From Ktedonobacteraceae bacterium (GTDB lineage Bacteria; Chloroflexota; Ktedonobacteria; Ktedonobacterales; Ktedonobacteraceae): 64,000 bases of DNA. The notes beneath the pieces are model-generated. The model had not been told where the DNA came from. It did no database searches and saw only the letters and a program-made list of their open reading frames with translations. The position numbers were made by a program, and so were the translations under genes. Where the stretch lies: the NCBI GenBank assembly GCA_035493895.1, contig DATJHM010000048.1, positions 725 to 64,724 of the forward strand. The letters are read 5' to 3'. Shown piece after piece: positions 365 through 16,429 of this stretch (position 1 is the first letter of the stretch; every line of letters starts with the position of its first letter).

Positions 365-1975
365 TTAAGAACAGCCAAGCTGCAATAATTGTTCACTGCA
401 ACAATACGTGGAGCTTGGTGCCGCAGGCGTTTGCGCGTTGACATAGTGGTGAGAAAAGATGTCTGCATACATCTTTGCAACCATCGGACCAACGTCGAGC
501 CCTCCATCGCCACCATTCTCTTTCATCGCTACGATGGTCAGATCCGGCAGCTGATTGGGATTGCTTATGGAGTAGGGGGCCTGCGTGATCATCCACGCAT
601 TGGCGGCGGGAGTTCCATTCGTGCTGACCTGACCGGTGCCGGTCTTGCCAATAATTCCCCACGGCGAGTTGTAGAGATCGGGCACAATCGAACCTGAACC
701 ACAGCGCGCTACCCCGTACATCGCCTGACGCACTTCCGTTGCCGTCTGCTGGCTCACAGGCGAGCTGAGCTCCTGAGGCGTGAAGGACTGAACAACGCTG
801 TTGCTTTTATCGGTGATTTTCGAGATCAGTGTTGGTCGCATCAGCCGTCCATTATCGGCGGCGACGTTATTAATCAGGGCCATCTGCAATGGGGTCACGT
901 TATCGTAGCCCTGACCGAAGGCATCCTCCGCCAGCGCATTGTCGGCCAGCGACTGATTATTTTTCAGCACGGTGCTGGTGGCAACAGGCAGATCAAAAGG
1001 AATTTTCTGGCTGAGATACAGACGTTTCGCGTAATTAAGCCAGGTCTGCTGCCCGATATTGACCCCGATCTGGCCATAAATCAGGTTGTCCGAGTGGGTA
1101 TAGCCATATTCGGTCGAAACCGGGAAATGGAATGTATAGCCTTGAATATTATTGCCAATAATTTGCTGACCATCAATGTAGAGGGGACCCATGGCATGCT
1201 GCTGGTCAAATCCCTGGTTCAGCGTCGTTTTGCCACTATTCAGGCCCGCCATCAACGTTACCGTTTTAAAGACTGATCCCGGGATAAAGAGCCCCTGGGT
1301 AGGACGTTCCAGGAGCGGCTGTTCTGTATCATTTGCCTCCTGATTGTAGTAGGCAAGATTATTGACGTTGAGCTGGTTCACAAGCGTATTGGGATTGAAC
1401 GTAGGACGGCTCACCATTGCCAGAATTGCCCCTGTCTGTGGGTCCATGACGATAACCGCCCCACGATCGCTTTGAAAGGTATTGTCATTATCGATCTTTA
1501 CGTAGGTATCGAAATCCTGGTTGACTATTTTCTGAATGCGCTCATCTATGGTCAGATAGAGCGAATCTCCTACTGGTGGCTGATGAAGCGTTTGATTCAC
1601 CAGGTTTTCCAGGCTGCTCGTTCCTACCTGCCCGGTGAGGTAGTTATTATACTGCTGTTCTATGCCTGTTGAACTATATTGGGTGCCAGCATAATACCCG
1701 ATGAGTCCGGCCAGGGATGGATCGGTATAGCGGCGAACATAGCCACATCCTGTCCCCGTATCTGTAGGGACCGATTCTGCCAGCAGCACGCCATTGCGGT
1801 CATAAATCTTCCCGCGCACAGGCACGTTAGCCGGAAGGCAAGAACGAAGATTGTGAATATTACTGGTCACCTGCTGTGCCACTACGACTTGCCAGTAGAC
1901 AAGACCTGCACTGGCGGCAATGAAGAAGGCAACAAATAATATGGCCAGTTTGCGTATATTTGAGGCAATATTCAT
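365..1975 (-). CDS. penicillin-binding protein 2 / FtsI-type peptidoglycan D,D-transpeptidase
   Basis: 536 aa with an N-terminal TM helix and the transpeptidase motifs SVFK (SxxK), SDN (SxN) and KTGTG (KTG). ATG start at 1975. Confidence 0.9.
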   Translation of the reverse strand: MNIASNIRKLAILFVAFFIAASAGLVYWQVVVAQQVTSNIHNLRSCLPANVPVRGKIYDRNGVLLAESVPTDTGTGCGYVRRYTDPSLAGLIGYYAGTQYSSTGIEQQYNNYLTGQVGTSSLENLVNQTLHQPPVGDSLYLTIDERIQKIVNQDFDTYVKIDNDNTFQSDRGAVIVMDPQTGAILAMVSRPTFNPNTLVNQLNVNNLAYYNQEANDTEQPLLERPTQGLFIPGSVFKTVTLMAGLNSGKTTLNQGFDQQHAMGPLYIDGQQIIGNNIQGYTFHFPVSTEYGYTHSDNLIYGQIGVNIGQQTWLNYAKRLYLSQKIPFDLPVATSTVLKNNQSLADNALAEDAFGQGYDNVTPLQMALINNVAADNGRLMRPTLISKITDKSNSVVQSFTPQELSSPVSQQTATEVRQAMYGVARCGSGSIVPDLYNSPWGIIGKTGTGQVSTNGTPAANAWMITQAPYSISNPNQLPDLTIVAMKENGGDGGLDVGPMVAKMYADIFSHHYVNAQTPAAPSSTYCCSEQLLQLGCS

Positions 1976-2525: not shown

Positions 2526-4487
2526 ATGCCCGATGAGATAGTATCACCGGCTCTTTTCACGGAAGCCGCCAACATGGATACGTTCCCGGCGCGGCTCACT
2601 GCTCTGGCGCGTTTTGCTGCCCTCCAACCCCTGATCGCGGCGAACCCGGCAACGCCGCCCACAACCTTAGAGCAGCTCAGTACGTCCACCGATCCTGGCA
2701 TACGGCGCGCAGTGGCTCAGAATCCCAATGCATCCGTACAGACGTTGTGCCGTCTGGCAGGCGAATTTCCCCAGGAATTTTTGCACAATCCCATTATTCC
2801 CCTCCTGAGCATGACCCGGCCTGCCTTTGTCAAAGATCTTCCTCTCCTTTCCTGGGCAAGCCTGCTCAGATTCGAAAATCTCTCTCGCTCGTGGCTGCAA
2901 CAAATCGTGACGGATAAGAGCTATGAGCGCAATCGGTCTCCTATCTTGCGGCTGGTGCAGTTGCATGTGACCCAGGCAGGCAAAAAGCCCGAAGCATGGC
3001 GATTTGAGGCGACGCACGCGTTGCGGGCATATCGACAAATAGGGAAGTTTCAGCAAACGGTGGGATATCAACCAAAAGCTACTCCCCTTGCTTCCATTCA
3101 TCAACAGGCTGAGATAGATATATTTCTCTTGTTGGCTCTGCTGTGCCCTCAATGTGCCCCGATGTTGAAAGAGCAATGGACCAATGTTGTACACACATCG
3201 CCTGATCGTATCGTGGGCGCGCTATCTTCGTCTCTGGCGATAAGCAGTAAAACGCTGTCTTTGCTCTCGTTTGAACGCAATGTGCCCGTACTCTGCCAGG
3301 TAGCTCGTCATCCGCGCACACCCGCGAATGTTCTGGTGCACCTCGCAGGTCGTCGTCTTTCATGGGAAGTGCGGTGCGCCGTCGCCAGCAATCCGCATAC
3401 TCCATTGGAGAATGTCTATCGGCTGCTGTCTGACAGCAAGCGTGTGGTGCGCCGGGCTGCTGTCTCGCATCCCGCTCTCACGCAACAGGACTACGAAATT
3501 CTTGCTCTCGATCAGGAGACCTCAGTACGTGCTGCTCTTGCCAGAGTGCCCCGGATCGGACTCGATTTGTTGAGCCAGCTGGCCCGTGACCCCGCGCCAG
3601 CCGTACGAGCCGCCGTTGCCCGCAATGTGAAAATCAACGTGGAGACTCTTACCACATTAGCACATGATCCCGAGCCAGTAGTGCGCGCTGCGGCCGCCGC
3701 CAACTCGCGTCTTCCGGGCGAGATACAGAGCATGCTGGCTACCGATCCTGAAGTTGCTGTGCGCGCCGGAGTGAGCGGGAATGCACGTTTACCTGAGTCG
3801 TGCTTTGCCGTGCTCGTGCAAGATCCCTCGCCGCTCGTGCGTAAACAGCTCGCCGCCAATTCGCGCCTGCCCGTCCAGCATCTCGAAACACTCTGGCGAA
3901 CGGGCAATGCGGAGGTCTGGCAGGGGGTCGCACGCCATCCTCAGACCGCTCCAGAACTGCTGACACAACTGGCGCAACAGGGCGATGCACGTGTGCGCGC
4001 AGCCGTTGCCGCTCACAGGCAGACGCCGCTCGAAGTGCTCTATGCCCTGGAGCAGGAAAATGTACGCGAGATCTGGCAGGGTCTGGCTATGAACCCGAAC
4101 GCGCCGCTTGACATCCTGGAACGTGCGCTTGCTACACCGTATACCGATCTCTGGTATCGCCTCTTCAACCATCCGACGATGCTGCGCAATCAGCGTCGTC
4201 CCTATCTCACGCTGCTCGCGAGCAAGCTCCAGCAACTTATGGTTGCAAACAGCTTTCCGAACTGGCTGCGAAAAGTCGTATTCCAATATTACACCTCATT
4301 TCCCGCAACCATCATGGAGCCGTTTGCTAGCTCTCCTCACTGGGAAGAGCGCTACCTTGCAGCTCGCCATCCGCAAATAGCAGAATCGCTCCTTGATACA
4401 CTTGCTCACGATGGCATCTGTTATGTCCAGGCCGGTGCACAGGACGCATTGCAACAGCGCAAACTCTCTCATAATCTGAAGCATTGA
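2526..4487 (+). CDS. leucine-rich-repeat-variant (LRV) / HEAT-like repeat protein
   Basis: 653 aa with many roughly 24-aa repeats of the form LAxDPxPxVRxAVAxNxxxP (for example LARDPAPAVRAAVARNV, LAHDPEPVVRAAAAANSRLP, LATDPEVAVRAGVSGNARLP). ATG at 2526. The TGA stop lies inside the next cassette's -35. Confidence 0.8.
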   Translation: MPDEIVSPALFTEAANMDTFPARLTALARFAALQPLIAANPATPPTTLEQLSTSTDPGIRRAVAQNPNASVQTLCRLAGEFPQEFLHNPIIPLLSMTRPAFVKDLPLLSWASLLRFENLSRSWLQQIVTDKSYERNRSPILRLVQLHVTQAGKKPEAWRFEATHALRAYRQIGKFQQTVGYQPKATPLASIHQQAEIDIFLLLALLCPQCAPMLKEQWTNVVHTSPDRIVGALSSSLAISSKTLSLLSFERNVPVLCQVARHPRTPANVLVHLAGRRLSWEVRCAVASNPHTPLENVYRLLSDSKRVVRRAAVSHPALTQQDYEILALDQETSVRAALARVPRIGLDLLSQLARDPAPAVRAAVARNVKINVETLTTLAHDPEPVVRAAAAANSRLPGEIQSMLATDPEVAVRAGVSGNARLPESCFAVLVQDPSPLVRKQLAANSRLPVQHLETLWRTGNAEVWQGVARHPQTAPELLTQLAQQGDARVRAAVAAHRQTPLEVLYALEQENVREIWQGLAMNPNAPLDILERALATPYTDLWYRLFNHPTMLRNQRRPYLTLLASKLQQLMVANSFPNWLRKVVFQYYTSFPATIMEPFASSPHWEERYLAARHPQIAESLLDTLAHDGICYVQAGAQDALQQRKLSHNLKH

Positions 4488-4534
4488 CAGCGAATGTGCT
4501 CTCGATTATAGTAATGCCATCGACTTTGTTCGAT
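4484..4534 (+). promoter_or_regulatory. Cassette 2 promoter plus 5' leader hairpin
   Basis: TTGACA (4484-4489, overlapping the stop codon at 4485-4487), a 17-nt spacer, TATAGT (4507-4512) and the hairpin ATCGA-CTTTGT-TCGAT (4519-4534). Confidence 0.65.
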
Positions 4535-4538
4535 CGGT

Positions 4539-4611
4539 GCGGGTGTAGCTCAGATGGTAGAGCATTGGTTGGCTAAACCGAAGATTGCAGGTTCGAGTCC
4601 TGCCCACTCTG
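4539..4611 (+). ncRNA. tRNA-like module 1 of cassette 2 (GCU in anticodon position, short variable loop, no U33)
   Basis: D arm TAGCTCAGATGGTAGAGC, anticodon arm TTGGT-TGGCTAA-ACCGA and T arm GCAGG-TTCGAGT-CCTGC. The acceptor region pairs only as a bulged extended helix (GGTGCGGGTG with CACTC-T-GCGC). Confidence 0.5.
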
Positions 4612-4620
4612 CGCTGTTGT

Positions 4621-4692
4621 GGGGGCGTGGTGCAGCGGCAGCATCGTGCACGCAAAGCACGGGAGGCCGGGTTCGATCCCCGGTCGCCTCCA
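4621..4692 (+). tRNA. tRNA-like module 2 of cassette 2 (Ala-type acceptor, GCA in anticodon position, 7-nt loop ACGCAAA)
   Basis: This is the only copy with a 5-bp anticodon stem (CGTGC/GCACG) and a 7-nt loop. Position 33 is C, not U. Acceptor GGGGGCG/CGCCTCC plus A73, and T arm GCCGGG-TTCGATC-CCCGGT. Confidence 0.55.
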
Positions 4693-4727
4693 CATTCTTC
4701 CTATTCTCCCCCTTTTTTTGCCCCGTT

Positions 4728-4757
4728 TTGGGATAGAGACGTTCGTTTTGGTATGAT
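4728..4757 (+). promoter_or_regulatory. Possible secondary promoter upstream of the kinase gene
   Basis: TTGGGA (4728-4733), an 18-nt spacer and TGG-TATGAT (extended -10, 4749-4757). Confidence 0.3.
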
Positions 4758-4933
4758 AGAGATGGGTCTCAGAGGGACTTTTTCGTCTCTCGCCCGTATA
4801 TCATAAAGATGACCTATCGTTGGCTCGATAGTGTGCACATTCAACCCCGCAACAATACGTATGCTCTTTCCGTTTGTTCGCTGTTGCTGAAAATGGAAAG
4901 AGGAATGGCAAAAAATCTCTGGAGAGGCTGCAT

Positions 4934-6952
4934 ATGGTTGATTACATAGGACGACAGCTTGGCAATTATCGCCTTACCCGTCTTTTAGGCAAAGGCAGTT
5001 TTGCGCAGGTCTATCTTGGGGAGCATATCTATCTTGGTACTCCGGCGGCGATGAAGGTGCTCAGCACGCAGATGGCGGACGATCTGGATGTGTTTCGCAC
5101 AGAAGCTCGTACTATCGCTCGTCTGATTCATCCCAATATTGTGCGCGTGCTGGAATTTGGCGTGGAAGGCACCATTCCGTTTCTGGTGCTGGACTATGCG
5201 CCCAATGGAACGCTTCGTCAGTACTACCCCAAAGGCGTGCCTCTCCCCTTGCCAACGGTGGTCTCCTATGTGAAACAGATCGCTGAGGCATTAGCGTATG
5301 CCCACGGTGAAAAGTTGATTCACCGGGATGTGAAGCCGGAAAATATCCTCCTGGGAAGAAATAACGAGTTGCTTCTGAGCGACTTTGGGATCGCTCTGAT
5401 GGCGCAGACGATGCACGATCAGAATATGCAGAATGTGGCGGGTACGCTGGCCTATATGGCCCCTGAACAAATCCAGGGCAATCCGCGTCAGGCCAGCGAT
5501 CAGTATTCATTGGGCATCATTGTCTATGAGTGGCTGACTGGCGAACGTCCCTTCAATGGCTCGTTCAACGAGATAATCTCGCAGCAGCTCTCTGTTCTCC
5601 CTCGTCCCTTGCGCGCAAAGGTTCCGACGATTGCCCCGGCCGTTGAACAGGTGGTGTTGATGGCCCTGGAGAAGAATCCTGATCGACGCTTTAACAACAT
5701 CCGCGCATTTGCCTTTGCCCTGGAGCTGGCGAGCCAGCTCAATGCGTCTGCCTCTGACGTCGCCGGTAAGCCTGCCGGAGTTGGCGAGATCTCCCCCTCC
5801 TTCAGCAAGCCCCAGGGCGATGAAAGAGCCGCGATTGCGCCGACGATTCTCCCATCTCCAGCGCCTGTATCGCCAGCAAACAATGCCGCGCCTCCGACGA
5901 TCCTTCCACCCCCTGAACTCCTATCGCCAGCGAAAAGTGAAGGCCCTGTTGTGCGCCCTGTCGCACCCCCGCCATCAGTACCCACGCCGCAAACAAAACC
6001 CGCGGGAACGCTCGTCTCCAGTTATCAGGGACATCCGAACGAAGTATGTTCTTTATCGTGGTTCTCCGGTGGCGTGCGCATTGTGTCGGTAAGCAATGAT
6101 AAAAGTGTGCATGTCTGGGATGCTATGACGGGCAAGCAGTTCCAGATCTACCAGGATATCGCTGATGCCGTGGGTGTCATCGCAGGCTCACCTGATGGCT
6201 CACGTATTGCCACTGCCGGATCTGATGCCCAGGTGCGGATCTGGGATTTTGCCACGAATCGTCTGGTAACCACATATCGTGGTCATGTCGGAAGCACCAT
6301 TAACGCAATCGCCTGGTCGCCAACGCAGCAGCAGCTCGCTTCCGCCGCTGCTGACGGCACCGTACACGTCTGGGATGCGACGACGGGGCAGACGCTCACC
6401 ATCTATCGTGGTCATACCGGCAGCGTCAATATGCTGGCGTGGTCGCCCGATGATCCTTCGTCGGCGCGTATCGTTTCCGGTGGCGACGATGCGTCAGTGC
6501 AGACCTGGAATGCCTCCACTGGCAGAAGTATTGCGCTCCACCGCAGCCAGGGGGCGAAGGTCATGAGTGTCGCATGGTCGCCGGAGGTATATCCCATGTC
6601 TCTCCAGACGAGCTACTCGGCAAGCATGCCCACGAAGGTTCCCAATAGTGCCCGGGTCGCGTGCGGGAGAGCAGACGGAACGGTACAGATGTGGGATACC
6701 ACCACAGATCGCGAAGTATTAAGCTACCGCTACAATGCCCCTCTCTCCGTCGTCGCATGGTCGCCGGATGGGAGGCGTTTCGCCTATGCCAGCGAAAACA
6801 AGACAGTAGAGGTGTGGGACACCATGACGAATCTCAAACTGGTAACCTTCTCCCATGCCGCTCCAACCCGCGTCATGGCCTGGTCCCCCGACGGAAAATA
6901 CATTGCCTCTGGCGGTGGCGATGCAACGATACAAGTCTGGGTTGCCCCATAA
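4934..6952 (+). CDS. Ser/Thr protein kinase with C-terminal WD40 beta-propeller
   Basis: Kinase motifs GKGSFAQV, HRDVKPENILL, DFGIA and APE. A Pro-rich linker is followed by at least 7 WD repeats (VHVWDA, VRIWDF, VQTWNA, VQMWDT, VEVWDT, IQVWV). The ATG at 4934 is preceded by GGAGAGG. The ORF track's TTG at 4874 is less likely. Confidence 0.9.
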   Translation: MVDYIGRQLGNYRLTRLLGKGSFAQVYLGEHIYLGTPAAMKVLSTQMADDLDVFRTEARTIARLIHPNIVRVLEFGVEGTIPFLVLDYAPNGTLRQYYPKGVPLPLPTVVSYVKQIAEALAYAHGEKLIHRDVKPENILLGRNNELLLSDFGIALMAQTMHDQNMQNVAGTLAYMAPEQIQGNPRQASDQYSLGIIVYEWLTGERPFNGSFNEIISQQLSVLPRPLRAKVPTIAPAVEQVVLMALEKNPDRRFNNIRAFAFALELASQLNASASDVAGKPAGVGEISPSFSKPQGDERAAIAPTILPSPAPVSPANNAAPPTILPPPELLSPAKSEGPVVRPVAPPPSVPTPQTKPAGTLVSSYQGHPNEVCSLSWFSGGVRIVSVSNDKSVHVWDAMTGKQFQIYQDIADAVGVIAGSPDGSRIATAGSDAQVRIWDFATNRLVTTYRGHVGSTINAIAWSPTQQQLASAAADGTVHVWDATTGQTLTIYRGHTGSVNMLAWSPDDPSSARIVSGGDDASVQTWNASTGRSIALHRSQGAKVMSVAWSPEVYPMSLQTSYSASMPTKVPNSARVACGRADGTVQMWDTTTDREVLSYRYNAPLSVVAWSPDGRRFAYASENKTVEVWDTMTNLKLVTFSHAAPTRVMAWSPDGKYIASGGGDATIQVWVAP

Positions 6953-7079: not shown

Positions 7080-7130
7080 TTGACAATAAATCTAAACTCA
7101 ACTATATTGCATACATCGGATTCGTTCGAT
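7080..7130 (+). promoter_or_regulatory. Cassette 3 promoter plus 5' leader hairpin
   Basis: TTGACA (7080-7085), a 17-nt spacer, TATATT (7103-7108) and the hairpin ATCGGA-TTCG-TTCGAT (7115-7130). Confidence 0.7.
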
Positions 7131-7134
7131 CGGC

Positions 7135-7208
7135 GCAGGTGTAGCGTAGTGGCCTAACGCAGCTGTATATCCCGCAGGAGATCTCAGGTTCGAATCCTGT
7201 CGCCTGTG
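7135..7208 (+). ncRNA. tRNA-like module 1 of cassette 3 (AUC in anticodon position)
   Basis: Acceptor GCAGGTG/CGCCTGT (two G-U pairs), extended to 11 bp with leader and trailer. D arm GCGT-AGTGGCCTA-ACGC, anticodon loop ATATCCC and T arm (T)CAGG-TTCGAAT-CCTG(T). Confidence 0.5.
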
Positions 7209-7217
7209 TCGCATAGT

Positions 7218-7291
7218 GGGGGCGTGGTGCAGCGTCAACACAGTACATCCAATTGGTACATGACGCCGGGTTCAACTCCCGGTCGCCTCCA
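7218..7291 (+). ncRNA. tRNA-like module 2 of cassette 3 (Ala-type acceptor, 9-nt loop ATCCAATTG)
   Basis: Invariant GGGGGCGTGGTGCAGCG ... CGCCTCCA. Anticodon stem GTAC/GTAC and T arm GCCGGG-TTCAACT-CCCGGT. Confidence 0.55.
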
Positions 7292-7344
7292 CAGTTCATC
7301 CATTGCAAAACTCTCCTCATCGCAGCCCAGAAGCACAACAAGCA

Positions 7345-7395
7345 TTGACAATAAATCTAAACTCAACTATATTGCATACATCGGATTCGTCCGAT
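7345..7395 (+). promoter_or_regulatory. Cassette 4 promoter plus 5' leader hairpin
   Basis: TTGACA (7345-7350), a 17-nt spacer, TATATT (7368-7373) and the hairpin ATCGGA-TTCG-TCCGAT (7380-7395). Confidence 0.7.
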
Positions 7396-7399
7396 CAGC

Positions 7400-7472
7400 A
7401 CAGGAGTAGCGTAGATGGTAGCGCGTCTGCTTTGCACGCAGAAGGTCGCAGGTTCGAGTCCTGTCTCTTCGT
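7400..7472 (+). tRNA. tRNA-like module 1 of cassette 4 (Ala-type UGC anticodon arm, non-canonical acceptor)
   Basis: The anticodon arm TCTGC-TTTGCAC-GCAGA is identical to bacterial tRNA-Ala(UGC). D arm GCGT-AGATGGTA-GCGC and T arm GCAGG-TTCGAGT-CCTGT. The acceptor ACAGGAG / CTCTT-C-GT pairs only with a bulged C and continues 4 more bp. Confidence 0.55.
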
Positions 7473-7481
7473 GCTGTCAGT

Positions 7482-7554
7482 GGGGGCGTGGTGCAGCGTG
7501 AGCATCGTGCAGCCAAAAGCACAGGACATCAGGTTCAACTCCTGGTCGCCTCCA
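7482..7554 (+). ncRNA. tRNA-like module 2 of cassette 4 (Ala-type acceptor, 8-nt loop AGCCAAAA)
   Basis: Invariant GGGGGCGTGGTGCAGCG ... CGCCTCCA. Anticodon stem GTGC/GCAC and T arm ATCAGG-TTCAACT-CCTGGT. Confidence 0.55.
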
Positions 7555-7607
7555 CACTTCATCCACCGCAAAACTCCCCTCGTGCCACCTCAGAAGCGCA
7601 ATGAGCA

Positions 7608-7658
7608 TTGACAACGCTTTTCCCCTCAACTATATTACATGCATCGACTTTGTTCGAT
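7608..7658 (+). promoter_or_regulatory. Cassette 5 promoter plus 5' leader hairpin
   Basis: TTGACA (7608-7613), a 17-nt spacer, TATATT (7631-7636) and the hairpin ATCGA-CTTTGT-TCGAT (7643-7658). Confidence 0.7.
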
Positions 7659-7662
7659 CGGC

Positions 7663-7736
7663 GTGGGAGTAGCTCGGGTGCTAGAGCGCCTCCTTGCCAA
7701 GGAGAGAGGTCGCAGGTTCGAGCCCTGCACACTCAA
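7663..7736 (+). tRNA. tRNA-like module 1 of cassette 5 (Gly-type GCC anticodon arm, degenerate acceptor)
   Basis: The anticodon loop TTGCCAA is identical to bacterial tRNA-Gly(GCC). D arm GCTC-GGGTGCTA-GAGC and T arm GCAGG-TTCGAGC-CCTGC. The 5' GTGGGAG pairs with the trailer only through an internal loop. Confidence 0.5.
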
Positions 7737-7745
7737 CGTCGTCGT

Positions 7746-7818
7746 GGGGGCGTGGTGCAGCGAAAGCATAGTACGCTCATTAGTACAGGACATCAGGTTC
7801 AACTCCTGGTCGCCTCCA
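7746..7818 (+). ncRNA. tRNA-like module 2 of cassette 5 (Ala-type acceptor, 8-nt loop GCTCATTA)
   Basis: Invariant GGGGGCGTGGTGCAGCG ... CGCCTCCA. Anticodon stem GTAC/GTAC and T arm ATCAGG-TTCAACT-CCTGGT. Confidence 0.55.
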
Positions 7819-7916
7819 CATTCACCCGAATATCTTATGGCCATTTATCCCCGCATTCTTGCCAGACCGATCTTGCAGAGATTTCAGCCAATAAAAAAAG
7901 AATTGAGTGGACTATC

Positions 7917-8951
7917 ATGACGCCAGAAGCTCTCTCAAGTTTTTTGCATAAGCTCGTCGAACATCGTCTGATGTTCAGTACTATGATCTGGGGCGCGCCG
8001 GGCATCGGCAAATCGAGCATTGTCGCGCAGACTGCGGCTGCCTACGAGATGGAGATGATCGATCTTCGCCTCTCACAACTGGCCCCGACGGATCTGCGCG
8101 GCTTGCCCGTGGCTGACAATGGTGTCTCGCGCTGGTATCCGCCCGAATTTTTGCCGCGTGAAGGCAAGGGCATTCTCTTTCTCGACGAATTGAATCTCGC
8201 TCCTCCCGCGATGCAGGGGATGGCGCAACAGTTGATTCTGGATCGCCGCGTCGGGAACTATACGGTTCCCCGGGATTGGTTTGTCTGGGCCGCAGGCAAT
8301 CGCAAAGAAGATCGTGCCGCCGTGTTCGACATGCCCGCGCCACTCGCCAACCGCTTCATCCATCTCACGGTCGAGGCGCACTTTGACAGCTTCAAATCCT
8401 ACGCCCTCGGACAGCACATTCACGAGCACATCCTGGCGTTTCTCTCTTTCCGTCCCGCATTGCTACATAAGCTCGATCCACAGCAGCCTGCCTGGCCTTC
8501 GCCTCGCTCGTGGATGATTGCCAATCGTCTATACAAAGTGGGCCTGGATATCTCGCATGTGGTCGGCCAGGGCGTTGCCGCAGAGTTTGCCGCTTTTCTC
8601 AAGCTCTATCAACAGTTGCCCAATGTCACTGAGATTTTGCAGGGAAACGGCGACAAGATTGGCTTCCCCGATGAGCCATCGCAGCGTTACGCCCTGACCG
8701 TTGCTCTGACTATGCGCGCCACTTCTCTGCAAGAAAGCTATCTGGCATTTCAATGGATGGCTGCGCATGCCGGACACGAATGGATACAGCTCTTTGCTAC
8801 CGATCTCTTCCGTCAGGCTCGCGCACGCAACGAACTGGGACGTCTGGCGACACTGGTGCAGCGCGATAAACGCTTACAGCAAATGTTCATTGAATACATG
8901 AAGTTGCTGGAGGAGCCCGACGCGTTGGAGGAAGCCGATGAGCAAGAATGA
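7917..8951 (+). CDS. MoxR-like AAA+ ATPase (AAA_5 type)
   Basis: Walker A GAPGIGKS, Walker B ILFLDELN, and AAGNRKEDRAAVFDMPAPLANRF. The likely start is the ATG at 7917 (MTPEALSS...). The ORF-track start at 7608 reads through cassette 5 and is rejected. Confidence 0.85.
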   Translation: MTPEALSSFLHKLVEHRLMFSTMIWGAPGIGKSSIVAQTAAAYEMEMIDLRLSQLAPTDLRGLPVADNGVSRWYPPEFLPREGKGILFLDELNLAPPAMQGMAQQLILDRRVGNYTVPRDWFVWAAGNRKEDRAAVFDMPAPLANRFIHLTVEAHFDSFKSYALGQHIHEHILAFLSFRPALLHKLDPQQPAWPSPRSWMIANRLYKVGLDISHVVGQGVAAEFAAFLKLYQQLPNVTEILQGNGDKIGFPDEPSQRYALTVALTMRATSLQESYLAFQWMAAHAGHEWIQLFATDLFRQARARNELGRLATLVQRDKRLQQMFIEYMKLLEEPDALEEADEQE

Positions 8952-10068
8952 TGCTTTTCAGCGCCAGATTTCCGCCGCGATCATTCAGTTGCGCCTGCAT
9001 TCGCCGTTCTTTGCAACGCTCGCGCTGTTCGCCAGGATTATTCCCACGCAAAACTATCCCACGGCGGCAACCGATGGACGCGATGTCTTTATCAATCCAG
9101 ATTTCTGGCGCGACCTGACGACCGCTGAGCGCCTGGGCTTGCTCGCTCACGAAGTACTGCACGCCGCGCTCCTCCACGTGCCGCGCCTGGGCCGACGCCA
9201 TCCCTTAACCTGGAATATTGCAGCCGATATTGTGGTCAATGGCATCATTCTTGCTCAGGATGGTTTTGCGCTGCCGAAGGGGCATCTGCGCTATGCGCAG
9301 CTTGAACAACTGAGTGTGGAGGAAATTTATCATCAGATCCAGGCAAATGCCGACGTACGCAAGCTTTTGCTTCCTCTGTTTGCCGATCTGCTGTTGCCCA
9401 CAGAAGGACTCTCTCCCGACCAGTATGCCGAACTTGAGCAGCACTGGAGGCAGGCCTTACGCCAGGCCGAAACGCTGGTCGAAGTGCTGGGACATGGCAC
9501 GCTGCCAGCAGGCTTGCGGCGCGAAATGACCCATCTCAGCCCCTCTCAACTGGATTGGCGAGCCTATCTCTGGCGCTTCCTGGTGCAAACTCCGACCGAT
9601 TTTGAGGGCTTCGATCGTCGCTTTGTGGGTCAGGGACTCTATCTGGACGCGCTCGCGGGGGAGAAACTGCGCGTCTTTGTGGCGGTCGATACCAGCGGCT
9701 CTATTGGCAGTAAAGAGATTGCGCAGTTTCTCGGCGAGGTGCAGGCCATCCTGGGTGCCTATCCACATCTGGAGGCCATCCTCTATTATGCAGATGCTGC
9801 CTGCTATGGTCCCTATGAGCTGACCCCTAACTCAGAGCTTCCCCCTCCGGTGGGTGGCGGCGGCACCGATTTTCGTCCGTTCTTTGCGGCCGTTGAGACG
9901 ACCCTCGATGCTTCGTCTCATGGCATCTGCATCTATCTGACCGATGGCTATGGTACCTTTCCCAGCGTACCACCCTCATTGCCCGTGCTCTGGGTCCTCT
10001 CTCCCGGCGGGATAAGCATCGAATATGTGCCATTTGGGGAAGCGGTACGCCTGATTCCCGACGTGTGA
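8938..10068 (+). CDS. vWA-like domain protein with N-terminal HExxH metallopeptidase-like domain (DUF2201-type partner of MoxR ATPases)
   Basis: HEVLH zinc-binding motif and a MIDAS-like VAVDTSGSI. The start overlaps the ATPase stop by 14 nt, which suggests an operon. Confidence 0.8.
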   Translation: MSKNDAFQRQISAAIIQLRLHSPFFATLALFARIIPTQNYPTAATDGRDVFINPDFWRDLTTAERLGLLAHEVLHAALLHVPRLGRRHPLTWNIAADIVVNGIILAQDGFALPKGHLRYAQLEQLSVEEIYHQIQANADVRKLLLPLFADLLLPTEGLSPDQYAELEQHWRQALRQAETLVEVLGHGTLPAGLRREMTHLSPSQLDWRAYLWRFLVQTPTDFEGFDRRFVGQGLYLDALAGEKLRVFVAVDTSGSIGSKEIAQFLGEVQAILGAYPHLEAILYYADAACYGPYELTPNSELPPPVGGGGTDFRPFFAAVETTLDASSHGICIYLTDGYGTFPSVPPSLPVLWVLSPGGISIEYVPFGEAVRLIPDV

Positions 10069-10576: not shown

Positions 10577-10969
10577 CACAAATTCATGCCGAAGAACCAA
10601 TTTCGCCCGAACCCTTCAGAAATTTCATTACCTGTCGAATATCTATAACAGAAGAGGAAAAATCCCTCCCACCCCGTTCTCACAACAACGATGTCGCCTG
10701 AAGAGAGACAGTGCAGCATCCAATAATGGGGGAAAGTGTAGGACTGGCGTAGGGGGCGTGTAGGCGTGAGATTCCCATCACATCGGCATTTGTGTAGGTT
10801 ATGTAGCTTTTTAGAAAAAAATCTCGTAGCGTAAAAAAATCTCGTAGCGCGTCACCAAAAGGATCCCAATTCCCTATCATCTCACCTCTCACCATCTCCT
10901 GTAGCTCTGGTGTCGAGGCGTGTAGGGTCAAGATCGCGATCACATCCACCCTGGTGTAGGATGTGTAGC
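10577..10969 (+). repeat. Repeat family X, copy A (roughly 400-bp non-coding element with multiple TGTAG motifs)
   Basis: Shares about 80-85% identity by eye with 28240-28542 (same orientation) and 53627-54067 (inverted). It contains a 17-nt tandem repeat, AAAAAAATCTCGTAGCG x2, at 10815-10849. Confidence 0.75.
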
Positions 10970-11052
10970 CCTGTAACAACTTGTCATAACGAATCCACCC
11001 ATTGGCCCGGAGAACCCATACCGGCATCGACACGCGTCGCGCCCCCGCAGAG

Positions 11053-11098
11053 GTAGGGATCGGGCTTTATGCCGATCCGCGAGCCCCCCGGCCATCGC
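11053..11098. repeat. REP-like element, family b (GTAGGGATCGGGCTTTATGCCGATCC) plus a CCCCCGGCCATC box
   Basis: A GTAG head is followed by an imperfect palindrome. The same architecture recurs at 16600-17120. Confidence 0.65.
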
Positions 11099-11205
11099 GC
11101 GCGACAAATCTGTTGAAAACGAAACAAAAATCTATATTTCACTATATTTTCTAAAACTAACTGCTAATACGTTTGATACAGAAATAGGTACATAGTATTA
11201 GTTTC

Positions 11206-11234
11206 TGTACAAAAATGAATAATATCCCTATAAT
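11206..11234 (+). promoter_or_regulatory. Possible promoter of the 1714-aa gene, inside an AT-rich leader
   Basis: TGTACA (11206-11211), a 17-nt spacer and TATAAT (11229-11234). GGAGG at 11271-11275 lies 9 nt before the ATG. Confidence 0.35.
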
Positions 11235-11284
11235 AAGTGGATATTGCCCCTGTCTATCAGTAACCCATCAGGAGGACGTCCTTT

Positions 11285-14200
11285 ATGTTATCGTGCTGGA
11301 ACTGCCACGCGGTATTACCAGAGGGAGCAAAATTTTGTGGACGCTGTGGAAATAAACAAGACACGGCAGCGTCTGTTCTACCATCTTCTCTTCTTACCGT
11401 TCCCCACTCTACTCAACTTGTAGCAACGGACCTTGTGCATCATGATCAACCTGTCGCAACGGACCTGCATCATGATCACTCTGCCGCTCCCACTTTTACC
11501 ATCTACTCGGCCGTTTTGCCGATCAAAACCTGGCTTGCAGAACATCGCGCGACCATTGCCGCAAAACTTTTGACGGTCCTTGTGTATGTCAATACCAGGC
11601 GCAATGAAAACAGAGAGCTTTTTGAAACCAATAGCGGAAGAGAAACTCCTCCGCTCGAAGATCGTTCCTGGGACAAAGTTGCCTTTATTGCCGGGCTGTA
11701 TGCTCGCTTTATGTGGCGCTATGAGTTGAACGCCGAACAGAAACGCAATCTCTGGGATGCCTTGTGCTGGTCCGTGCTCTATGAACGAGCTTTGCGCCCG
11801 AAGATGGCTGATGCCCGCTTTGCCGAACTGGTTGGCTTTTTTAATGGCTGCGCCGGGGATAGCGAATTCTTCGCCTATATGCTCCTGAGCATGCCGCTCT
11901 TACTTGAATATGTTGATACTTCCAATATCCACAAACTCCTGACCGCCAGTGAACGTCTGGGCAACTCATCGGATGTCGTGCATCTGCGCGCATTACTTCA
12001 CCAACGCCTCGTTATGCCTGCCGATGTGGATCTGGAGTCAACTCAATTGACGGTGCTGGCCGATCAGCCCGGCCCGAGACGTGAGTGGGCGCGTATCATT
12101 CTGGCTATTGAACATCTCTGGCAGTTTTTAGACAAAAAACGCGAGAGCAGTAATCAGCGCGCGCTGACCTTTGCCCGCGAAAATCCCATGGACTCGACCA
12201 CTCCTTCGCAACTGGCAACGCTGGGCGGGGTGATTTGTCGCAATGTCGTCTTTCGCTATGCTCACAATAGTACGTTACCTGGCAGCATGCTGACTGCTGA
12301 ACAATTGGCGGACGCCATCGCGCTGGCGGAATACTCGATACGCTATAGTTCAGGTGATTATATTGGTAAGGCCGAATATTATTATCTGCTCTTGAGCAGC
12401 TTACGCGATCTGCGGACACATGTACTCTCGGCCGATGTGCTCGTGAGCGCGCTGAAACGCCAGTTCGCACCCGAGGGATTGGCCCGAATATCGGAATTCT
12501 CCTGGTCCGATCTCCTCGGCATCGTGACGCGCTACCTGAGCGAGTGTCGTCTGGCGGAAACCATTGATGTGGTGGAGGTGGAGTCCTGGATACGCGCTCT
12601 GGCTGATCTTGCTCCTCAGTTTCAACTGGAGGCGCGCAAGGTGTTTGTGAGTGAGGTGCGCCAGCATGGCGTGCGCGACAGTATGGCTTTGCGTGCTTTG
12701 CAGGGCGAGTCATTGGAAATGGTCAGTGAAACACATGACAGGGGGCCACTGGCGTTTCTCGGACAGGAGCGCTACAAAGAGCTGCTGACCTGTATTCGTA
12801 CCTCTCGTCTGGATCGTCTGGGCGAAATTCTGCGTGAGGCGCGCCCGAAACTTTTCGCCGAACTGAGCCGTCTATTGACCGATCAGAAGTTTGCGGAGAT
12901 TCTCCCGCCCCGACGCTCATTGCGCATACGTGGTCGCAATGCCAATGCTCTCGATCGCTTTCAGGAGGCAAAAACGCTTATTCAGAGCGAGAATGTCGCC
13001 GAGCAACAGGAGGGACTTGCTCTCTTCGAGCGAGCTCAGGCTGATACTGCCCGCGAATATCAGCCCGTTGCACGCGAATGGCGTCTGTTCGCGATTGCCT
13101 GCGTCCGGGCGCGCTATCAGGCGGTCCCGCTGTGGGAAGAGGATCGCTGCAAGGGCGTTGCGTCCTGGGAGGAGATCTGGAATCTGGCCGTCTTCTATGT
13201 TCATGTTGGCAAGATCGATCAGGCGTTGGAATTGCTGGTGCCCGGCGTTGAGCGGCAGCGAGCCCCTTTCTCGCATCTGCGTTTTGCCCTCTATTGCAGC
13301 GTGCAGATTCTCGGACAGGGGTCACATTCGCAACACGAGAGCATCGAAGCCGCCGAAACGTTTCTTATGGAGCATCTGAAACAGTATCCCTTGCCGGAAT
13401 GCTATCTGGCATGGTCTTTATTGGTCAGTGAACGCGAGAGTGTTGATCGAGCGCAAAGTACAAACAATATGATGAAGCAACTGACGATCCTGACCAAATT
13501 TAACGAGTTGCTTGACCATCCCATCCTTATCCTGAAGCCAGAGGAGTCGGTCAGCGATTCTGCCCTGGAGACATTTGAAAAAGAACTCCGTCGCCTCGAT
13601 CTGGACGATGTCTGGCGTTTCTGGATTCACGACTATGCCCAACGCAACCGCTATAAATTCAGTGCCTGGCAGGCGCTGAGCGATGCGTACGAGCGCGCGG
13701 GCGAAAGTACCGGAGCTGAAAAGTCCCTGAAACATGTTGCAGATACGCAGCTTGATATGTATCTGAAGCAGCGCGAGAAAAGTAGTGCTGTTGTCTCTAA
13801 TCTGCTGCATCTGCGCAATCATCTATGTAAGTTGTTCGATTTTTATCAACGTCAGGGCCGTTTATTGGACGATGATGTCTTTGCCCGCTTTAAGCACTAT
13901 CGCACGACTGTCCCCGAACTATGGCATGAACGGGAGAGTGCGAATACGAAGTTGATCAAGCAGACACGTCCTCTGCTGGAGAAACTGGGGCGAACAGGCA
14001 GCACAAACGAGTCTTCTGCAACTCAAGCCCCACAGAAAGCCTGGTATGCGCTCGCTTCGGAGCTTACGACTGTCCAGGAAATCGCCACTCTGAAGAGCTT
14101 GCAGGCGCGCATACATACCCATGTCCATCTTCTGACGGATGCGCAAAAGCAGGGTCAGGACGATGTTGCGGGCGTCCTATCGCTGCTGGATGATCTCTGC

Positions 14201-16429
14201 TCACTCGAGGGTACCCGCTGGCGTCACGATGAGCTGTCGCGCGAGGTGGAGCGTTTGAATAGCGCCATCCAGGAGGTTGGTGCTCAAATAGAACAGGAAG
14301 CCGCTCTCAAGCCACTGAAAGCGTTGCTCGAAACATTTCGTCGCGTCTTCAAACGTTTTAGCGAAATGCAGCATCTGGCACCGGAGCTGGAGATCGAGCC
14401 AACTCCGCTTGGAGGTGGCCTGCCTGATGATATGCCCGAGACTGCGCTGGTGATCCGCATTCATAATCCCGGCCCTGGCAAAGTCAGCGATCTGCGCATC
14501 TCCTGTACTGAGAAGGGATTGACCGCCTCGCAGGGCGAAGTAACGCTGAACTGTCTGGAGCAGGGAGAGAATGCTGTCGTCGCTATCCCTGTGCTTGTGC
14601 AGGTGCCCGCAGAGGCAATCCAGCTCGATTTTCAGATTACGTTGACCTACCAATGGGGGATTATCAAGGATATGAGCTGTATCTGTCCGCTCAAGGTTCG
14701 GCTCTTCAATTTCCACGATTTCTTACGCCAGCATGATATTCACGATTATGAGCTGCCCAATCCGTACATTTTCAATCGTCCCATCGACTTTTCTGAGGAT
14801 GATCACCGTCTCTTCCAGGGACGTGAGAGCGAGCTTGCGCTGATCCGCACGATCTTTTTCAAGCGGCAGATGACCGGCGCTCCCCTCTATTTCCACGGGA
14901 TTCGCAGGGTGGGAAAGACGTCGCTACTCAATCGCATTGTGCTGGAATTGCGGAAAGAGGCGTTCTTTCCCTGCGTTGTCGATCTCAAAAGCGTGAAAGC
15001 CGCGCAGCACCCGTTAGAGGTCACGATCAACAGTTTTACACAGAGCATCCTGCGCGATGCGCAAAGTCAGGGCCTGGATGTAGAGGGTCTGGAGTCTGTG
15101 GGAGCGAGCCATCCAGATCCGCTTCTCGGCGTTGAGCGTTTCTTCGCGGCGCTGCGCGAACGGACCGGTCGACTCCAGCTTGTGCTGCTCCTGGACGAGT
15201 TCTATCTCCTCGTTGCCGAGCGCACGACGCCTTTGCTGGACCTGTTGCGCCATATTCATCAGAGTGGGATGATTCTCTTTATTATGTCCGGTTGGATGCG
15301 CCCGGAACCGCTACGCCGCGCCTGCCCGGAGACGCAACTCTTCCCGCTCACAGAAAGGCCGCTCGATTTTCTCTCAGTTCACGCTGTTCGTCAGGTACTG
15401 CTTGCGCCGGTTGCGGGCTATGGCATTGAAATTCCTGATCATACCGTGCAGCGTGTCTTCTGGCAGACTGCTGGCAATCCTTACCACGTTGCGCGCATGG
15501 CCTATGAAGGGGTGGATCGGCTCAATGCCCAGCATCGCACCGTGCTGGCTCCACAGGATATCGATGCGATCGCCGAGCGTCTGGCCAGCGAGCCCGCCAA
15601 CTTCACCTCATCGTTGTTCAGCCCCTTAATTCTCAGTCCGGAGGAACAGCGTGAGGCGATCCGCTTTGCCAGAGGTTTAAACGGGAAGCGTGACTATCTC
15701 GACTTTGCGGAAGCCTCGCGCACATTTGATCTGGACATTATTCGTGGGTTGGAAGAGAAATATATTCTTGAGTACCTGCGTGATGAGAAGGGAGAGCGTC
15801 TACGTGTGCGCAGCAAGATGCTGGCGACGTTCCTGGGGAGTCGTATGACCGAGCCCATCGTCCTGCCGCCGCCGCCATCCCATGAGAAACGCGTGGGATT
15901 ATTCGTCGATTACGAAAATCTCCGCCCCCTCATGCCCGCCAGCATGACGGCCAGGGAGGTCGGCGAGATGCTCGTCACCTATGCTGCTCGTTTTGGCGAA
16001 GTCGTCTGTTGTTGGGCCTGTGCTGATCCGCGCAACATTCGCGATCTCGCCAGCGTCAAACTCGAACTGGAGCAGGTCGGTTTCCAGCTTCAGACGCCGA
16101 GCGGTGAGCCTCAGACCGGGCAATCCAGCAAGAACCTGTCGGACTTCGTGCTCATCGAACGTATCATCGACGAAAGCACGCACACCGATCCCAGCATCTA
16201 TATCATCGTCAGTGGAGACAAAGATTACTACGAACGCATCAACACGCTTCTGAACGGAGGTTGTACCGTGCGTCTCTGCGCCTCCATCAGCGCTGGCAAT
16301 CTGGCCGAGAAGTATCATACCCTGGAGACAGAACGTCATCAGTATCAACTCGCCGAAGGCAAACCAGAGCGCGATTTCTTTATCGACGATCTGGATGCCG
16401 TCTTGAAACTCAAAGTGAACAACCCGTAG
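11285..16429 (+). CDS. 1714-aa multidomain protein: N-terminal zinc ribbon, long helical region, STAND/ORC-like P-loop ATPase, C-terminal NYN (LabA-like) ribonuclease domain
   Basis: CWNCHAVLPEGAKFCGRCG (zinc ribbon). FQGRESEL...YFHGIRRVGKTSLLNRI (Walker A, about 14896-14925) and LVLLLDEF (Walker B). The NYN motifs are VGLFVDYENL (about 15893) and IIVSGDKDYYERI (about 16204). Strong RBS and ATG start. Confidence 0.85.
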   Translation: MLSCWNCHAVLPEGAKFCGRCGNKQDTAASVLPSSLLTVPHSTQLVATDLVHHDQPVATDLHHDHSAAPTFTIYSAVLPIKTWLAEHRATIAAKLLTVLVYVNTRRNENRELFETNSGRETPPLEDRSWDKVAFIAGLYARFMWRYELNAEQKRNLWDALCWSVLYERALRPKMADARFAELVGFFNGCAGDSEFFAYMLLSMPLLLEYVDTSNIHKLLTASERLGNSSDVVHLRALLHQRLVMPADVDLESTQLTVLADQPGPRREWARIILAIEHLWQFLDKKRESSNQRALTFARENPMDSTTPSQLATLGGVICRNVVFRYAHNSTLPGSMLTAEQLADAIALAEYSIRYSSGDYIGKAEYYYLLLSSLRDLRTHVLSADVLVSALKRQFAPEGLARISEFSWSDLLGIVTRYLSECRLAETIDVVEVESWIRALADLAPQFQLEARKVFVSEVRQHGVRDSMALRALQGESLEMVSETHDRGPLAFLGQERYKELLTCIRTSRLDRLGEILREARPKLFAELSRLLTDQKFAEILPPRRSLRIRGRNANALDRFQEAKTLIQSENVAEQQEGLALFERAQADTAREYQPVAREWRLFAIACVRARYQAVPLWEEDRCKGVASWEEIWNLAVFYVHVGKIDQALELLVPGVERQRAPFSHLRFALYCSVQILGQGSHSQHESIEAAETFLMEHLKQYPLPECYLAWSLLVSERESVDRAQSTNNMMKQLTILTKFNELLDHPILILKPEESVSDSALETFEKELRRLDLDDVWRFWIHDYAQRNRYKFSAWQALSDAYERAGESTGAEKSLKHVADTQLDMYLKQREKSSAVVSNLLHLRNHLCKLFDFYQRQGRLLDDDVFARFKHYRTTVPELWHERESANTKLIKQTRPLLEKLGRTGSTNESSATQAPQKAWYALASELTTVQEIATLKSLQARIHTHVHLLTDAQKQGQDDVAGVLSLLDDLCSLEGTRWRHDELSREVERLNSAIQEVGAQIEQEAALKPLKALLETFRRVFKRFSEMQHLAPELEIEPTPLGGGLPDDMPETALVIRIHNPGPGKVSDLRISCTEKGLTASQGEVTLNCLEQGENAVVAIPVLVQVPAEAIQLDFQITLTYQWGIIKDMSCICPLKVRLFNFHDFLRQHDIHDYELPNPYIFNRPIDFSEDDHRLFQGRESELALIRTIFFKRQMTGAPLYFHGIRRVGKTSLLNRIVLELRKEAFFPCVVDLKSVKAAQHPLEVTINSFTQSILRDAQSQGLDVEGLESVGASHPDPLLGVERFFAALRERTGRLQLVLLLDEFYLLVAERTTPLLDLLRHIHQSGMILFIMSGWMRPEPLRRACPETQLFPLTERPLDFLSVHAVRQVLLAPVAGYGIEIPDHTVQRVFWQTAGNPYHVARMAYEGVDRLNAQHRTVLAPQDIDAIAERLASEPANFTSSLFSPLILSPEEQREAIRFARGLNGKRDYLDFAEASRTFDLDIIRGLEEKYILEYLRDEKGERLRVRSKMLATFLGSRMTEPIVLPPPPSHEKRVGLFVDYENLRPLMPASMTAREVGEMLVTYAARFGEVVCCWACADPRNIRDLASVKLELEQVGFQLQTPSGEPQTGQSSKNLSDFVLIERIIDESTHTDPSIYIIVSGDKDYYERINTLLNGGCTVRLCASISAGNLAEKYHTLETERHQYQLAEGKPERDFFIDDLDAVLKLKVNNP

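Follow-up and report, generated by a model that had tools for sequence, protein, structure and literature searches.

Introduction

In the YrlA/Ro60 system, a tRNA-mimicking non-coding RNA is encoded next to its protein partners, and Ro60 itself combines a ring of HEAT repeats with a VWA/MIDAS domain. Here we describe a comparable arrangement in a 64,000-nt stretch of DNA from a Ktedonobacteraceae bacterium (Chloroflexota; assembly GCA_035493895.1, contig DATJHM010000048.1, positions 725 to 64,724), referred to below as the window. It contains five short cassettes, each consisting of a promoter, a leader hairpin and two tandem tRNA-like units, that adjoin genes for a HEAT-like solenoid protein (LRV) and a VWA protein (DUF2201), the latter paired with a MoxR-type ATPase. 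These cassettes belong to a conserved family of structured, promoter-bearing RNAs tied to one operon. Their long, bulged closing stems recall the Ro-binding stem of Y RNA. However, YrlA contains one permuted tRNA-like module, whereas the cassette RNA contains two complete cloverleaves in tandem, and Y RNAs, unlike the cassettes, occur without arrays or variable anticodons. Pfam scans of all neighbouring open reading frames (ORFs) revealed no TROVE/Ro60 domain. A lead to the YrlA family (RF02553) obtained at a relaxed E-value was rejected: the match scored 17.4 bits against a threshold of 69 (E = 0.38) and spanned the junction between the two units.

Other described systems share parts of this design. 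The tRNA-like domain of tmRNA resembles the second unit of the cassettes (unit 2) in its G3.U70 acceptor stem, its T arm, its reduced D loop and its dispensable anticodon arm, although the cassettes have neither an mRNA-like reading frame nor pseudoknots; ARAGORN called no tmRNA in them, and Rfam reports tRNA only. Irregular polycistronic tRNAs and allo-tRNAs (PMC5389517), which occur as polycistrons in soil bacteria, likewise depart from the canonical cloverleaf and have longer acceptor stems. Their acceptor plus T branch amounts to 12 bp (8/4 or 9/3), as opposed to 15 bp (9/6) in unit 2, and they reside beside toxin-antitoxin genes in other phyla, a context that differs from that of the cassettes. 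Co-transcripts of tRNAs and mRNAs, such as thrU-tyrU-glyT-thrT-tufB of E. coli and those of mitochondria, also place tRNA shapes upstream of protein genes, co-oriented with them and with no terminator between; these elements are ordinary decoding tRNAs, whereas the cassette units are non-canonical, have their own promoter for each pair and accompany one operon class-wide. Finally, the AAA_5 ATPase gene and the gene for the DUF2201 metallopeptidase-VWA protein overlap, as in a jumbo-phage MoxR / metallopeptidase-VWA pair that is predicted to act as chaperone and cochaperone (PMC7824862). Cyanophage S-TIM5, Thermus phage phiFa and Bacillus phage G encode homologues of the MoxR-DUF2201 pair at 31-35% identity. 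For such MoxR/VWA pairs no RNA partner has been described, and no tRNA is annotated next to the pair in the S-TIM5 locus.

At gathering scores, Rfam returned only tRNA matches for the cassettes, and neither Rfam nor the full-text literature searched describes this RNA or its gene linkage. On balance, we lean towards reading each cassette as a gene in its own right that encodes a non-coding RNA of about 175 nt; its promoter would drive the operon too, and its product would be partnered with the operon's proteins.

Results

Cassettes and promoters in the window

All five cassettes lie on the + strand, each about 212 nt long, and are interspersed with four protein-coding genes identified by Pfam.

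2250-2461, + strand: cassette 1 (-35 TTGACA 2250-2255; -10 TATATT 2273-2278; leader hairpin 2285-2300; unit 1 about 2301-2381, anticodon GTC; unit 2 2385-2461)
2526-4487, + strand: LRV/HEAT-type alpha-solenoid protein, 653 aa
4484-4693, + strand: cassette 2 (-35 4484-4489, which holds the LRV stop codon; -10 TATAGT 4507-4512; leader hairpin 4519-4534; unit 1 about 4535-4616, anticodon GCT; unit 2 4619-4693, 7-nt loop, GCA)
4934-6952, + strand: Ser/Thr kinase-WD40 protein, within the cassette string
7080-7292, + strand: cassette 3 (unit 1 7134-7210, anticodon ATC; unit 2 7216-7292)
7345-7555, + strand: cassette 4 (unit 1 7400-7472, anticodon TGC; unit 2 7480-7555)
7608-7819, + strand: cassette 5 (unit 1 7664-7737, anticodon GCC; unit 2 7744-7819)
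7917-8951, + strand: MoxR-type AAA+ ATPase (AAA_5), 74-87% identical to orthologues in related loci
8938-10068, + strand: DUF2201 protein (N-terminal DUF2201_N HExxH metallopeptidase domain, C-terminal VWA-like DUF2201 domain)

The pattern AGCATTGACA-N17-19-TATANT occurs five times in the window, compared with 0.00 times in shuffled sequence, and a 17-mer from unit 2, GGGGGCGTGGTGCAGCG, also occurs five times (0.21 in shuffles). The top five sigma-70 matches between positions 2000 and 10400 are the five cassette promoters, each scoring 11/12, and a covariance model of unit 2 run against the window matched the five known sites only.

A first-pass annotation of the window, made from its letters, had placed the stop codon of the LRV gene inside the promoter of cassette 2 and had seen no terminator on either side of that gene. 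Both observations held. The TGA at 4485-4487 falls within the TTGACA at 4484-4489, which is followed after a 17-nt spacer by TATAGT at 4507-4512, and a terminator scan found none within 2461-2526 or from 4487 to cassette 2. Cassette 1 ends at 2461, with 64 nt between it and the LRV start codon at 2526, and cassette 5 ends at 7819, leaving 97 nt to the MoxR start codon at 7917. Between cassette 2 and the kinase gene we also noted two signals that the annotation had left unmentioned, namely a weak hairpin followed by a T-run (4764-4790) and a promoter-like site (9/12) at 4728-4757; the kinase-WD40 gene may have weak promoter and terminator signals of its own.

RNA anatomy and structural support

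We collected 40 cassette copies, measured from the -35 element to the end of unit 2, and these range from 193 to 226 nt. All share the same order of parts: a near-consensus sigma-70 promoter, a 5' hairpin, tRNA-like unit 1 and tRNA-like unit 2. The promoter fits TTGACn-17/18-TAnnnT in 40 of 40 cassettes, with a -10 element that is mostly TATAGT or TATATT and a spacer whose sequence is free to vary. A leader hairpin of 5-6 bp begins a few nucleotides past the likely transcription start, and its two strands change together between species (ATCGGA/TCCGAT, AGCAG/CTGCT, GCCGGA/TCTGGC and ACCAG/CTGGT, as read from alignments).

Unit 1 begins 53-60 nt after the start of the -35 element, the sole exception being one copy at locus L036 (42 nt). 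It is a cloverleaf that both ARAGORN and Rfam call as tRNA (33-59 bits), closed by a stem of 11-12 bp with a bulge. Most copies retain the tRNA core, that is, U8, A14, G18G19, the T loop and a 7-nt anticodon loop with U33; the D arm has been lost in some. A few nucleotides further on (up to about 8), unit 2 begins with GTGGGGGCGTGGTGCAGCG and ends with CGCCTCCAC. Its acceptor stem is 9 bp long and its T stem 6 bp, and its D loop reads AGCGNNA, with the GG dinucleotide absent. The 3:70 position is G.U in 38 copies, A-U in 3 and G-C in none. The anticodon arm has loops of 7-9 nt on covarying stems and is missing altogether in L012, L017, L021 and L028. The minimum-free-energy fold of cassette 2 reproduces this layout, with a hairpin, a cloverleaf closed by an 11-bp bulged stem and a second cloverleaf closed by a 9-bp stem.

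The helices of the cassette are backed by covariation. For unit 2, 41 distinct copies were aligned and pairs were counted on a hand-specified structure: 93.4% of cells were paired, compared with 36-52% when the 3' partners were slid, two-sided changes occurred in 14 of 24 pairs, and the observed covariation score was reached by no shuffle. The two acceptor pairs beyond the canonical seven covary (GC/AU/GU/CG/UA and UA/CG/AU), as does the sixth pair of the T stem. RNAalifold applied to 30 whole cassettes found many compensatory changes in the D, anticodon and T stems of unit 1, as well as an outer 5-bp stem that extends its acceptor helix and has compensatory changes in 5 of 5 pairs.

Neither unit conforms to a canonical bacterial tRNA gene, which has a 7-bp acceptor stem and a 5-bp T stem: unit 2 has 9 and 6 bp, and the closing stem of unit 1 exceeds this length as noted above. 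Identity elements that would match the anticodon were also lacking. The first 19 nt of unit 2 are identical to tRNA-Asp genes of Chloroflexia (two metagenome-assembled genomes (MAGs), loci L008 and L009), comprising the upstream GT and the first 17 nt of the gene, and unit 2 of L023 retains the Asp anticodon loop CCTGTCAAGG. The units therefore probably derive from tRNA genes, and these matches suggest that unit 2 descends from a gene for tRNA-Asp.

In the acceptor stem of unit 2 (for example window 2387-2393/2453-2459, L012 1304-1375 and L021 5609-5679), the 3' strand has the sequence C(A/G)CCUCC or, in some copies, GAUCACCUCC, which is the anti-Shine-Dalgarno sequence of 16S rRNA. The 5' strand is correspondingly Shine-Dalgarno-like, with GGAGGUG in L010 and L023. 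This likeness may be a coincidence arising from a G-rich acceptor stem.

Conserved neighbourhood in Ktedonobacteria

Cassettes were found at 16 further Ktedonobacteria loci, where they are co-oriented with orthologues of LRV and/or MoxR-DUF2201 and lie 54-113 nt upstream of them. Searches that started from the RNA and searches that started from the proteins led to the same set of genes. An exact 19-mer scan of 185,579 species genomes returned 18 loci, including five cassette loci (Dictyobacter aurantiacus, Ktedonospora formicarum and three MAGs), all five of which adjoin LRV, MoxR and DUF2201 orthologues. The remainder comprised the two Chloroflexia tRNA-Asp genes and 11 loci outside Ktedonobacteria, the latter dismissed as chance matches inside unrelated sequence. 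A degenerate unit-2 pattern run over metagenome contigs gave 26 matches; 10 of them are true cassette loci, and each of these with enough flanking sequence carries LRV, MoxR or DUF2201. The other 16 were discarded as ordinary tRNAs, mostly tRNA-His-like.

In the opposite direction, look-ups of LRV and DUF2201 orthologues yielded seven loci, all with cassettes. The LRV orthologues (31-61% identity) and DUF2201 orthologues, which include those of Ktedonobacter racemifer and strain brp13, always occur in the order LRV-MoxR-DUF2201, and wherever DNA was available at least one cassette lies 64-100 nt upstream of LRV. Over the 263 kb of collected sequence, strong matches to the unit-2 covariance model were confined to these cassettes, and a unit-2 scan of viral contigs recovered no cassette copies, its two matches being ordinary phage tRNAs. 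Copy number ranges from one to six per locus, with tandem arrays of up to 4-5 copies in L010 and L012. A tRNA-derived mobile repeat of the SINE or MITE type was considered and set aside: such elements are dispersed on both strands, and all copies here are on the operon strand of a single locus, as assessed genome-wide with the exact 19-mer.

The proposal in the first-pass annotation that cassettes and protein genes make up one neighbourhood is thus borne out, as every recovered Ktedonobacteria locus has cassettes upstream of LRV and/or MoxR-DUF2201. Cassettes beside random genes, which the annotation had named as evidence to the contrary, were not found in any of the sequence that could be searched. 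Its proposed check, whether orthologous genes in relatives carry cassettes, came out positive for LRV and MoxR-DUF2201, whereas kinase-WD40 is not kept at that position. The idea of three equivalent transcription units, each behind its cassettes, is not supported: kinase-WD40 is lineage-specific and is replaced in relatives by TIR_2, by EamA and DUF3052, by RRXRR-HNH or by nothing.

Stop-codon overlap and the variable slot between LRV and MoxR

The packing of the LRV stop codon into a cassette promoter recurs in five other loci. In four of them (L001, L019, L046 and L050) the TGA lies within the -35 element at the same offset, -1, as in the window, and in L010 the stop is the TAG of the -10 element TATAGT. 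Because stops are found in at least two promoter frames, an LRV frame that enters a cassette likely ends within the promoter. The last seven or so LRV residues are not conserved, which fits a frame ending inside the cassette promoter. The overlap is therefore real and conserved, and it is explained by packing; a regulatory device is not required. In L037 (200-680), the LRV frame seems to traverse the first downstream cassette and to end at the TAG in the -10 element of the second; this may reflect a misassembly, or a frame left open by chance.

Without a cassette between them, the genes are packed closer still. In L012, L017 and L021 the LRV stop and the MoxR start share the sequence ATGA, and the two genes are 3-10 nt apart in L023 and L051, which argues that LRV, MoxR and DUF2201 form one tightly packed operon. 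Where cargo or a gap separates LRV from MoxR, a cassette lies 54-113 nt upstream of MoxR in almost every locus; the exceptions are L006, in which an HNH gene stands between cassette and MoxR, and L024, where a gap of 177 nt holds no cassette.

The slot itself holds the kinase-WD40 gene and extra cassettes in the window, a double-TIR_2 protein on the opposite strand in L019 (8413-9387) and L050 (6899-7873), the latter also with EamA and DUF3052, an RRXRR-HNH endonuclease in L006 (1731-3104) and nothing at other loci. These cassette-flanked contents vary by species, as at an insertion hot spot. Since kinase-WD40 is not conserved at its position, we treat it as variable cargo, and it was rejected as a member of the system.

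Anticodons and divergence between copies

The anticodon loop of unit 1 has the canonical 7 nt (Y-U-NNN-R-N) around a triplet that varies among copies. The window has GTC, GCT, ATC, TGC and GCC, and the triplets at other loci include CAT, GCA, GGC, CGC, GCG, ACC, TCC, CTC and CCA. L019 and L050 share four orthologous cassette pairs that are 85-88% identical, with the same anticodon in each pair, and in one of these the anticodon stem has undergone compensatory changes around a constant CGC. Among paralogues within a locus, unit 1 is the most divergent part (51-81% identity, compared with 73-97% for unit 2). Cassettes 3 and 4 of the window, for example, are 96% identical in promoter and leader but just 72% in unit 1. 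Anticodons kept between orthologues, together with the divergence of unit 1 between paralogues, indicate that the anticodon arm appears to be set for each cassette rather than drifting.

The SDR gene and counterparts in cyanobacteria

A further gene, encoding a Zn-ribbon short-chain dehydrogenase/reductase (SDR), stands directly upstream of the cassette array in most relatives, namely in L006, L012/L034, L019, L020, L024, L036/L046 and L051. Its adh_short domain is split by an insert and, in Ktedonobacteria, is preceded by an N-terminal DUF6602 region. Searches of PDB type with this protein found generic SDRs only.

An orthologue with 46% identity in the cyanobacterium Tolypothrix sp. FACHB-123 (L052) lies in the order MoxR - DUF2201 - pentapeptide-repeat protein - SDR - two tandem dual tRNA-like units (10927-11249), followed by a hairpin and T-run that we read as an intrinsic terminator. 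In Microcoleus (L055, 9411-9557) and Oscillatoria (L056, 9086-9590), the order is pentapeptide-repeat protein - SDR - one or three dual units, respectively, and the first Oscillatoria unit starts 5 nt past the SDR stop codon; MoxR was not found nearby in either locus. Unit A of the cyanobacterial RNAs combines an acceptor stem that stays constant with an anticodon arm that is hypervariable; its T loop, TTTGATT or TTTGAGT, is non-canonical, and in Tolypothrix and Microcoleus an encoded ACCA follows the unit. Unit B is constant. These RNAs, known from three loci only, share the design logic of the Ktedonobacteria cassettes, although sequence homology is not evident.

Proteins encoded beside the cassettes

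The LRV protein was modelled with high confidence as a long HEAT-like alpha-solenoid (pLDDT 92.7, pTM 0.85). The start of DUF2201 overlaps the end of MoxR, and this AAA_5-VWA gene pair is conserved in all loci. PADLOC gave no match for LRV, MoxR or DUF2201 and only generic kinase models for the kinase, and NCBIfam contained nothing specific for LRV, MoxR or DUF2201. Sequence searches of the PDB returned only the AAA domain of Midasin (E = 8e-5) and the repeat protein 1LRV. In the distant locus L053 (1983-8125), an LRV-MoxR-DUF2201 set (LRV 26% identical) is preceded by an HSP90 (HtpG-like) gene whose stop codon abuts the LRV start.

Other features of the window

Two sets of repeats lie outside the cassette region. 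A perfect 25-bp inverted repeat, ACAGGGGCGGAACGGTGATGCTCAA / TTGAGCATCACCGTTCCGCCCCTGT, with an 18-nt loop (282-349), is located just past the 3' end of a penicillin-binding-protein gene (365-1975, minus strand). A GTGTAGG-rich 53-nt direct repeat occurs at 10755-10969 as two copies that are 74% identical and 162 nt apart, and AAAAAAATCTCGTAGCG is present as an exact tandem pair at 10815-10849. Downstream of both of these repeats comes an ORF of 1714 aa (11285-16429), whose product has a zinc ribbon, an ATPase region and, at its C terminus, an NYN nuclease domain.

Discussion

The reading that we favour makes the cassette an RNA gene embedded in a protein operon. Its sigma-70 promoter would transcribe an RNA with a 5' hairpin and two tRNA-shaped domains, within a gene set of the form (Zn-ribbon SDR) - cassette array - LRV solenoid - (cassette) - MoxR ATPase - VWA/metallopeptidase. 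The co-orientation of cassettes and genes, their spacing of 54-113 nt, the lack of a terminator in the window and the presence of a cassette in nearly every case where MoxR is apart from LRV indicate that the same promoters most likely drive the protein genes as well, most likely by read-through into LRV and MoxR-DUF2201. Nucleases of tRNA processing, of the RNase P/Z type, would cut the RNA from the mRNA. We infer that the RNA may then act with the proteins of the set, as their ligand, scaffold or substrate, much as in a ribonucleoprotein (RNP) built on a tRNA mimic.

Several observations weigh against this reading. The SDR gene is absent from the 64-kb window, and no tRNA-like gene was detected at the Sorangium locus of the SDR orthologue (L054) or at the LRV-MoxR-DUF2201 set of L053. 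In several species a T-run follows unit 2 and is a possible termination point. A fold search with LRV retrieved generic HEAT/ARM scaffolds only (the PP2A A subunit and importins; TM 0.2-0.3), with no RNA-binding relative among them. MoxR-VWA pairs are otherwise known as protein-remodelling chaperones. Finally, the result that no cassettes lie in other contexts covers whole genomes by the exact 19-mer only, plus the contigs that were recovered.

Rather than encoding a functional RNA, the cassette could act only in cis, as a strong promoter followed by a tRNA-shaped 5' element, with RNase P/Z cleavage giving the downstream mRNA a defined, stable 5' end, as happens in tRNA-mRNA co-transcripts such as thrU-tufB of E. 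coli or in mitochondrial tRNA punctuation, and releasing an RNA without a role of its own. Such a module would suit the strict co-orientation, the short distance to the next start codon (54-113 nt), the conserved promoter hexamers and the lack of terminators in the window between cassettes and LRV. It would also suit the distribution of cassettes, which are present in nearly every case with cargo between LRV and MoxR and in none where the LRV stop overlaps the MoxR start. A processing signal, however, needs neither two distinct domains nor a covarying leader hairpin, and four to five tandem cassettes before one gene are excessive for a promoter. The extension stems, which would hinder RNase P, the conserved G3.U70 and the anticodons kept between orthologues are left unexplained. 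Moreover, the dual units of cyanobacteria come last in the SDR operon, ahead of a terminator rather than of genes. We therefore regard a purely cis-acting role as unlikely. Still harder to sustain is the notion of decaying tRNA pseudogenes, or of a tRNA-derived repeat or mobile element accumulated by chance. The 19-nt identity to tRNA-Asp, the Asp loop of L023 and the copy number of 1-6 per locus might be taken as signs of such an origin, but the compensatory changes in all helices and the invariant hexamers, kept across loci whose LRV proteins are only 31-37% identical, are not those of decaying sequence. Nor are the copies scattered: they occupy a single locus, always on the operon strand (whole genomes having been searched by exact 19-mer only), none was found in viral contigs, and no terminal repeats or target duplications were seen, although no systematic search was made for them. 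This explanation strikes us as scarcely credible.

The units might also be working, aminoacylated tRNAs of odd shape that serve as extra isoacceptors in translation or recoding, or as donors for a tRNA-dependent reaction of the neighbouring enzymes; unit 2 might, for example, be charged with alanine via G3.U70, or the SDR might act on an aminoacyl ester. Unit 1 does retain U8, A14, G18G19, the T loop GTTCGA, U33 and a purine at position 37, with Rfam scores of 33-59 bits, its anticodons are conserved between orthologues, and ACCA is encoded after unit A in Tolypothrix and Microcoleus. Unit 2 of the window has G1-C72, G2-C71, G3.U70, G4-C69 and discriminator A, the AlaRS identity set common to tRNA-Ala and tmRNA. 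Other features do not agree with service as tRNA. The closing stems of 9-12 bp covary past 1:72, so that mature tRNA ends would need to be excised from within a helix, and the acceptor stems of unit 1 bear bulges or mismatches. The unit with anticodon GCT (Ser) is without a long variable arm, and the unit 1 with TGC (Ala) has A3-U70. To our knowledge, the anticodons ATC and ACC, both of which occur in unit 1, are not used by bacterial tRNAs. Some copies of unit 1 have lost the D arm, and unit 2, with loops of 7-9 nt or no anticodon arm at all, has a 6-bp T stem and no GG in its D loop. A role as working, charged tRNAs thus appears quite improbable.

A bolder reading, which we put forward as a tentative and rather doubtful possibility, is that the RNA is a subunit or substrate of a previously unrecognised RNP system in large-genome filamentous bacteria, namely Ktedonobacteria and filamentous cyanobacteria. 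Such a system would combine a MoxR-VWA/metallopeptidase machine with the Zn-ribbon SDR and with a scaffold made of a repeat protein, either LRV or pentapeptide repeat. Unit 1 would display a chosen anticodon, and unit 2 would provide a constant acceptor handle of the Ala type. The RNA could then serve as bait or cofactor, either in conflict or in the surveillance of RNA or translation, or else as a carrier in a tRNA-dependent reaction.

Protein-dedicated tRNA mimics are rare, and the known cases, Y RNA with Ro60 and tmRNA with SmpB, have been informative. Here, a two-headed, arrayed RNA with an anticodon particular to each copy is linked to a solenoid protein, a MoxR ATPase, a VWA-peptidase and an SDR in two phyla. 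MoxR-VWA pairs are very common and their clients are mostly not known; this locus ties such a pair to a tRNA mimic. It also offers a testable bacterial case of tRNA-style operon punctuation, and the availability of cultured hosts (Ktedonobacter racemifer, Dictyobacter and strains of Nostocales) makes experiments feasible.

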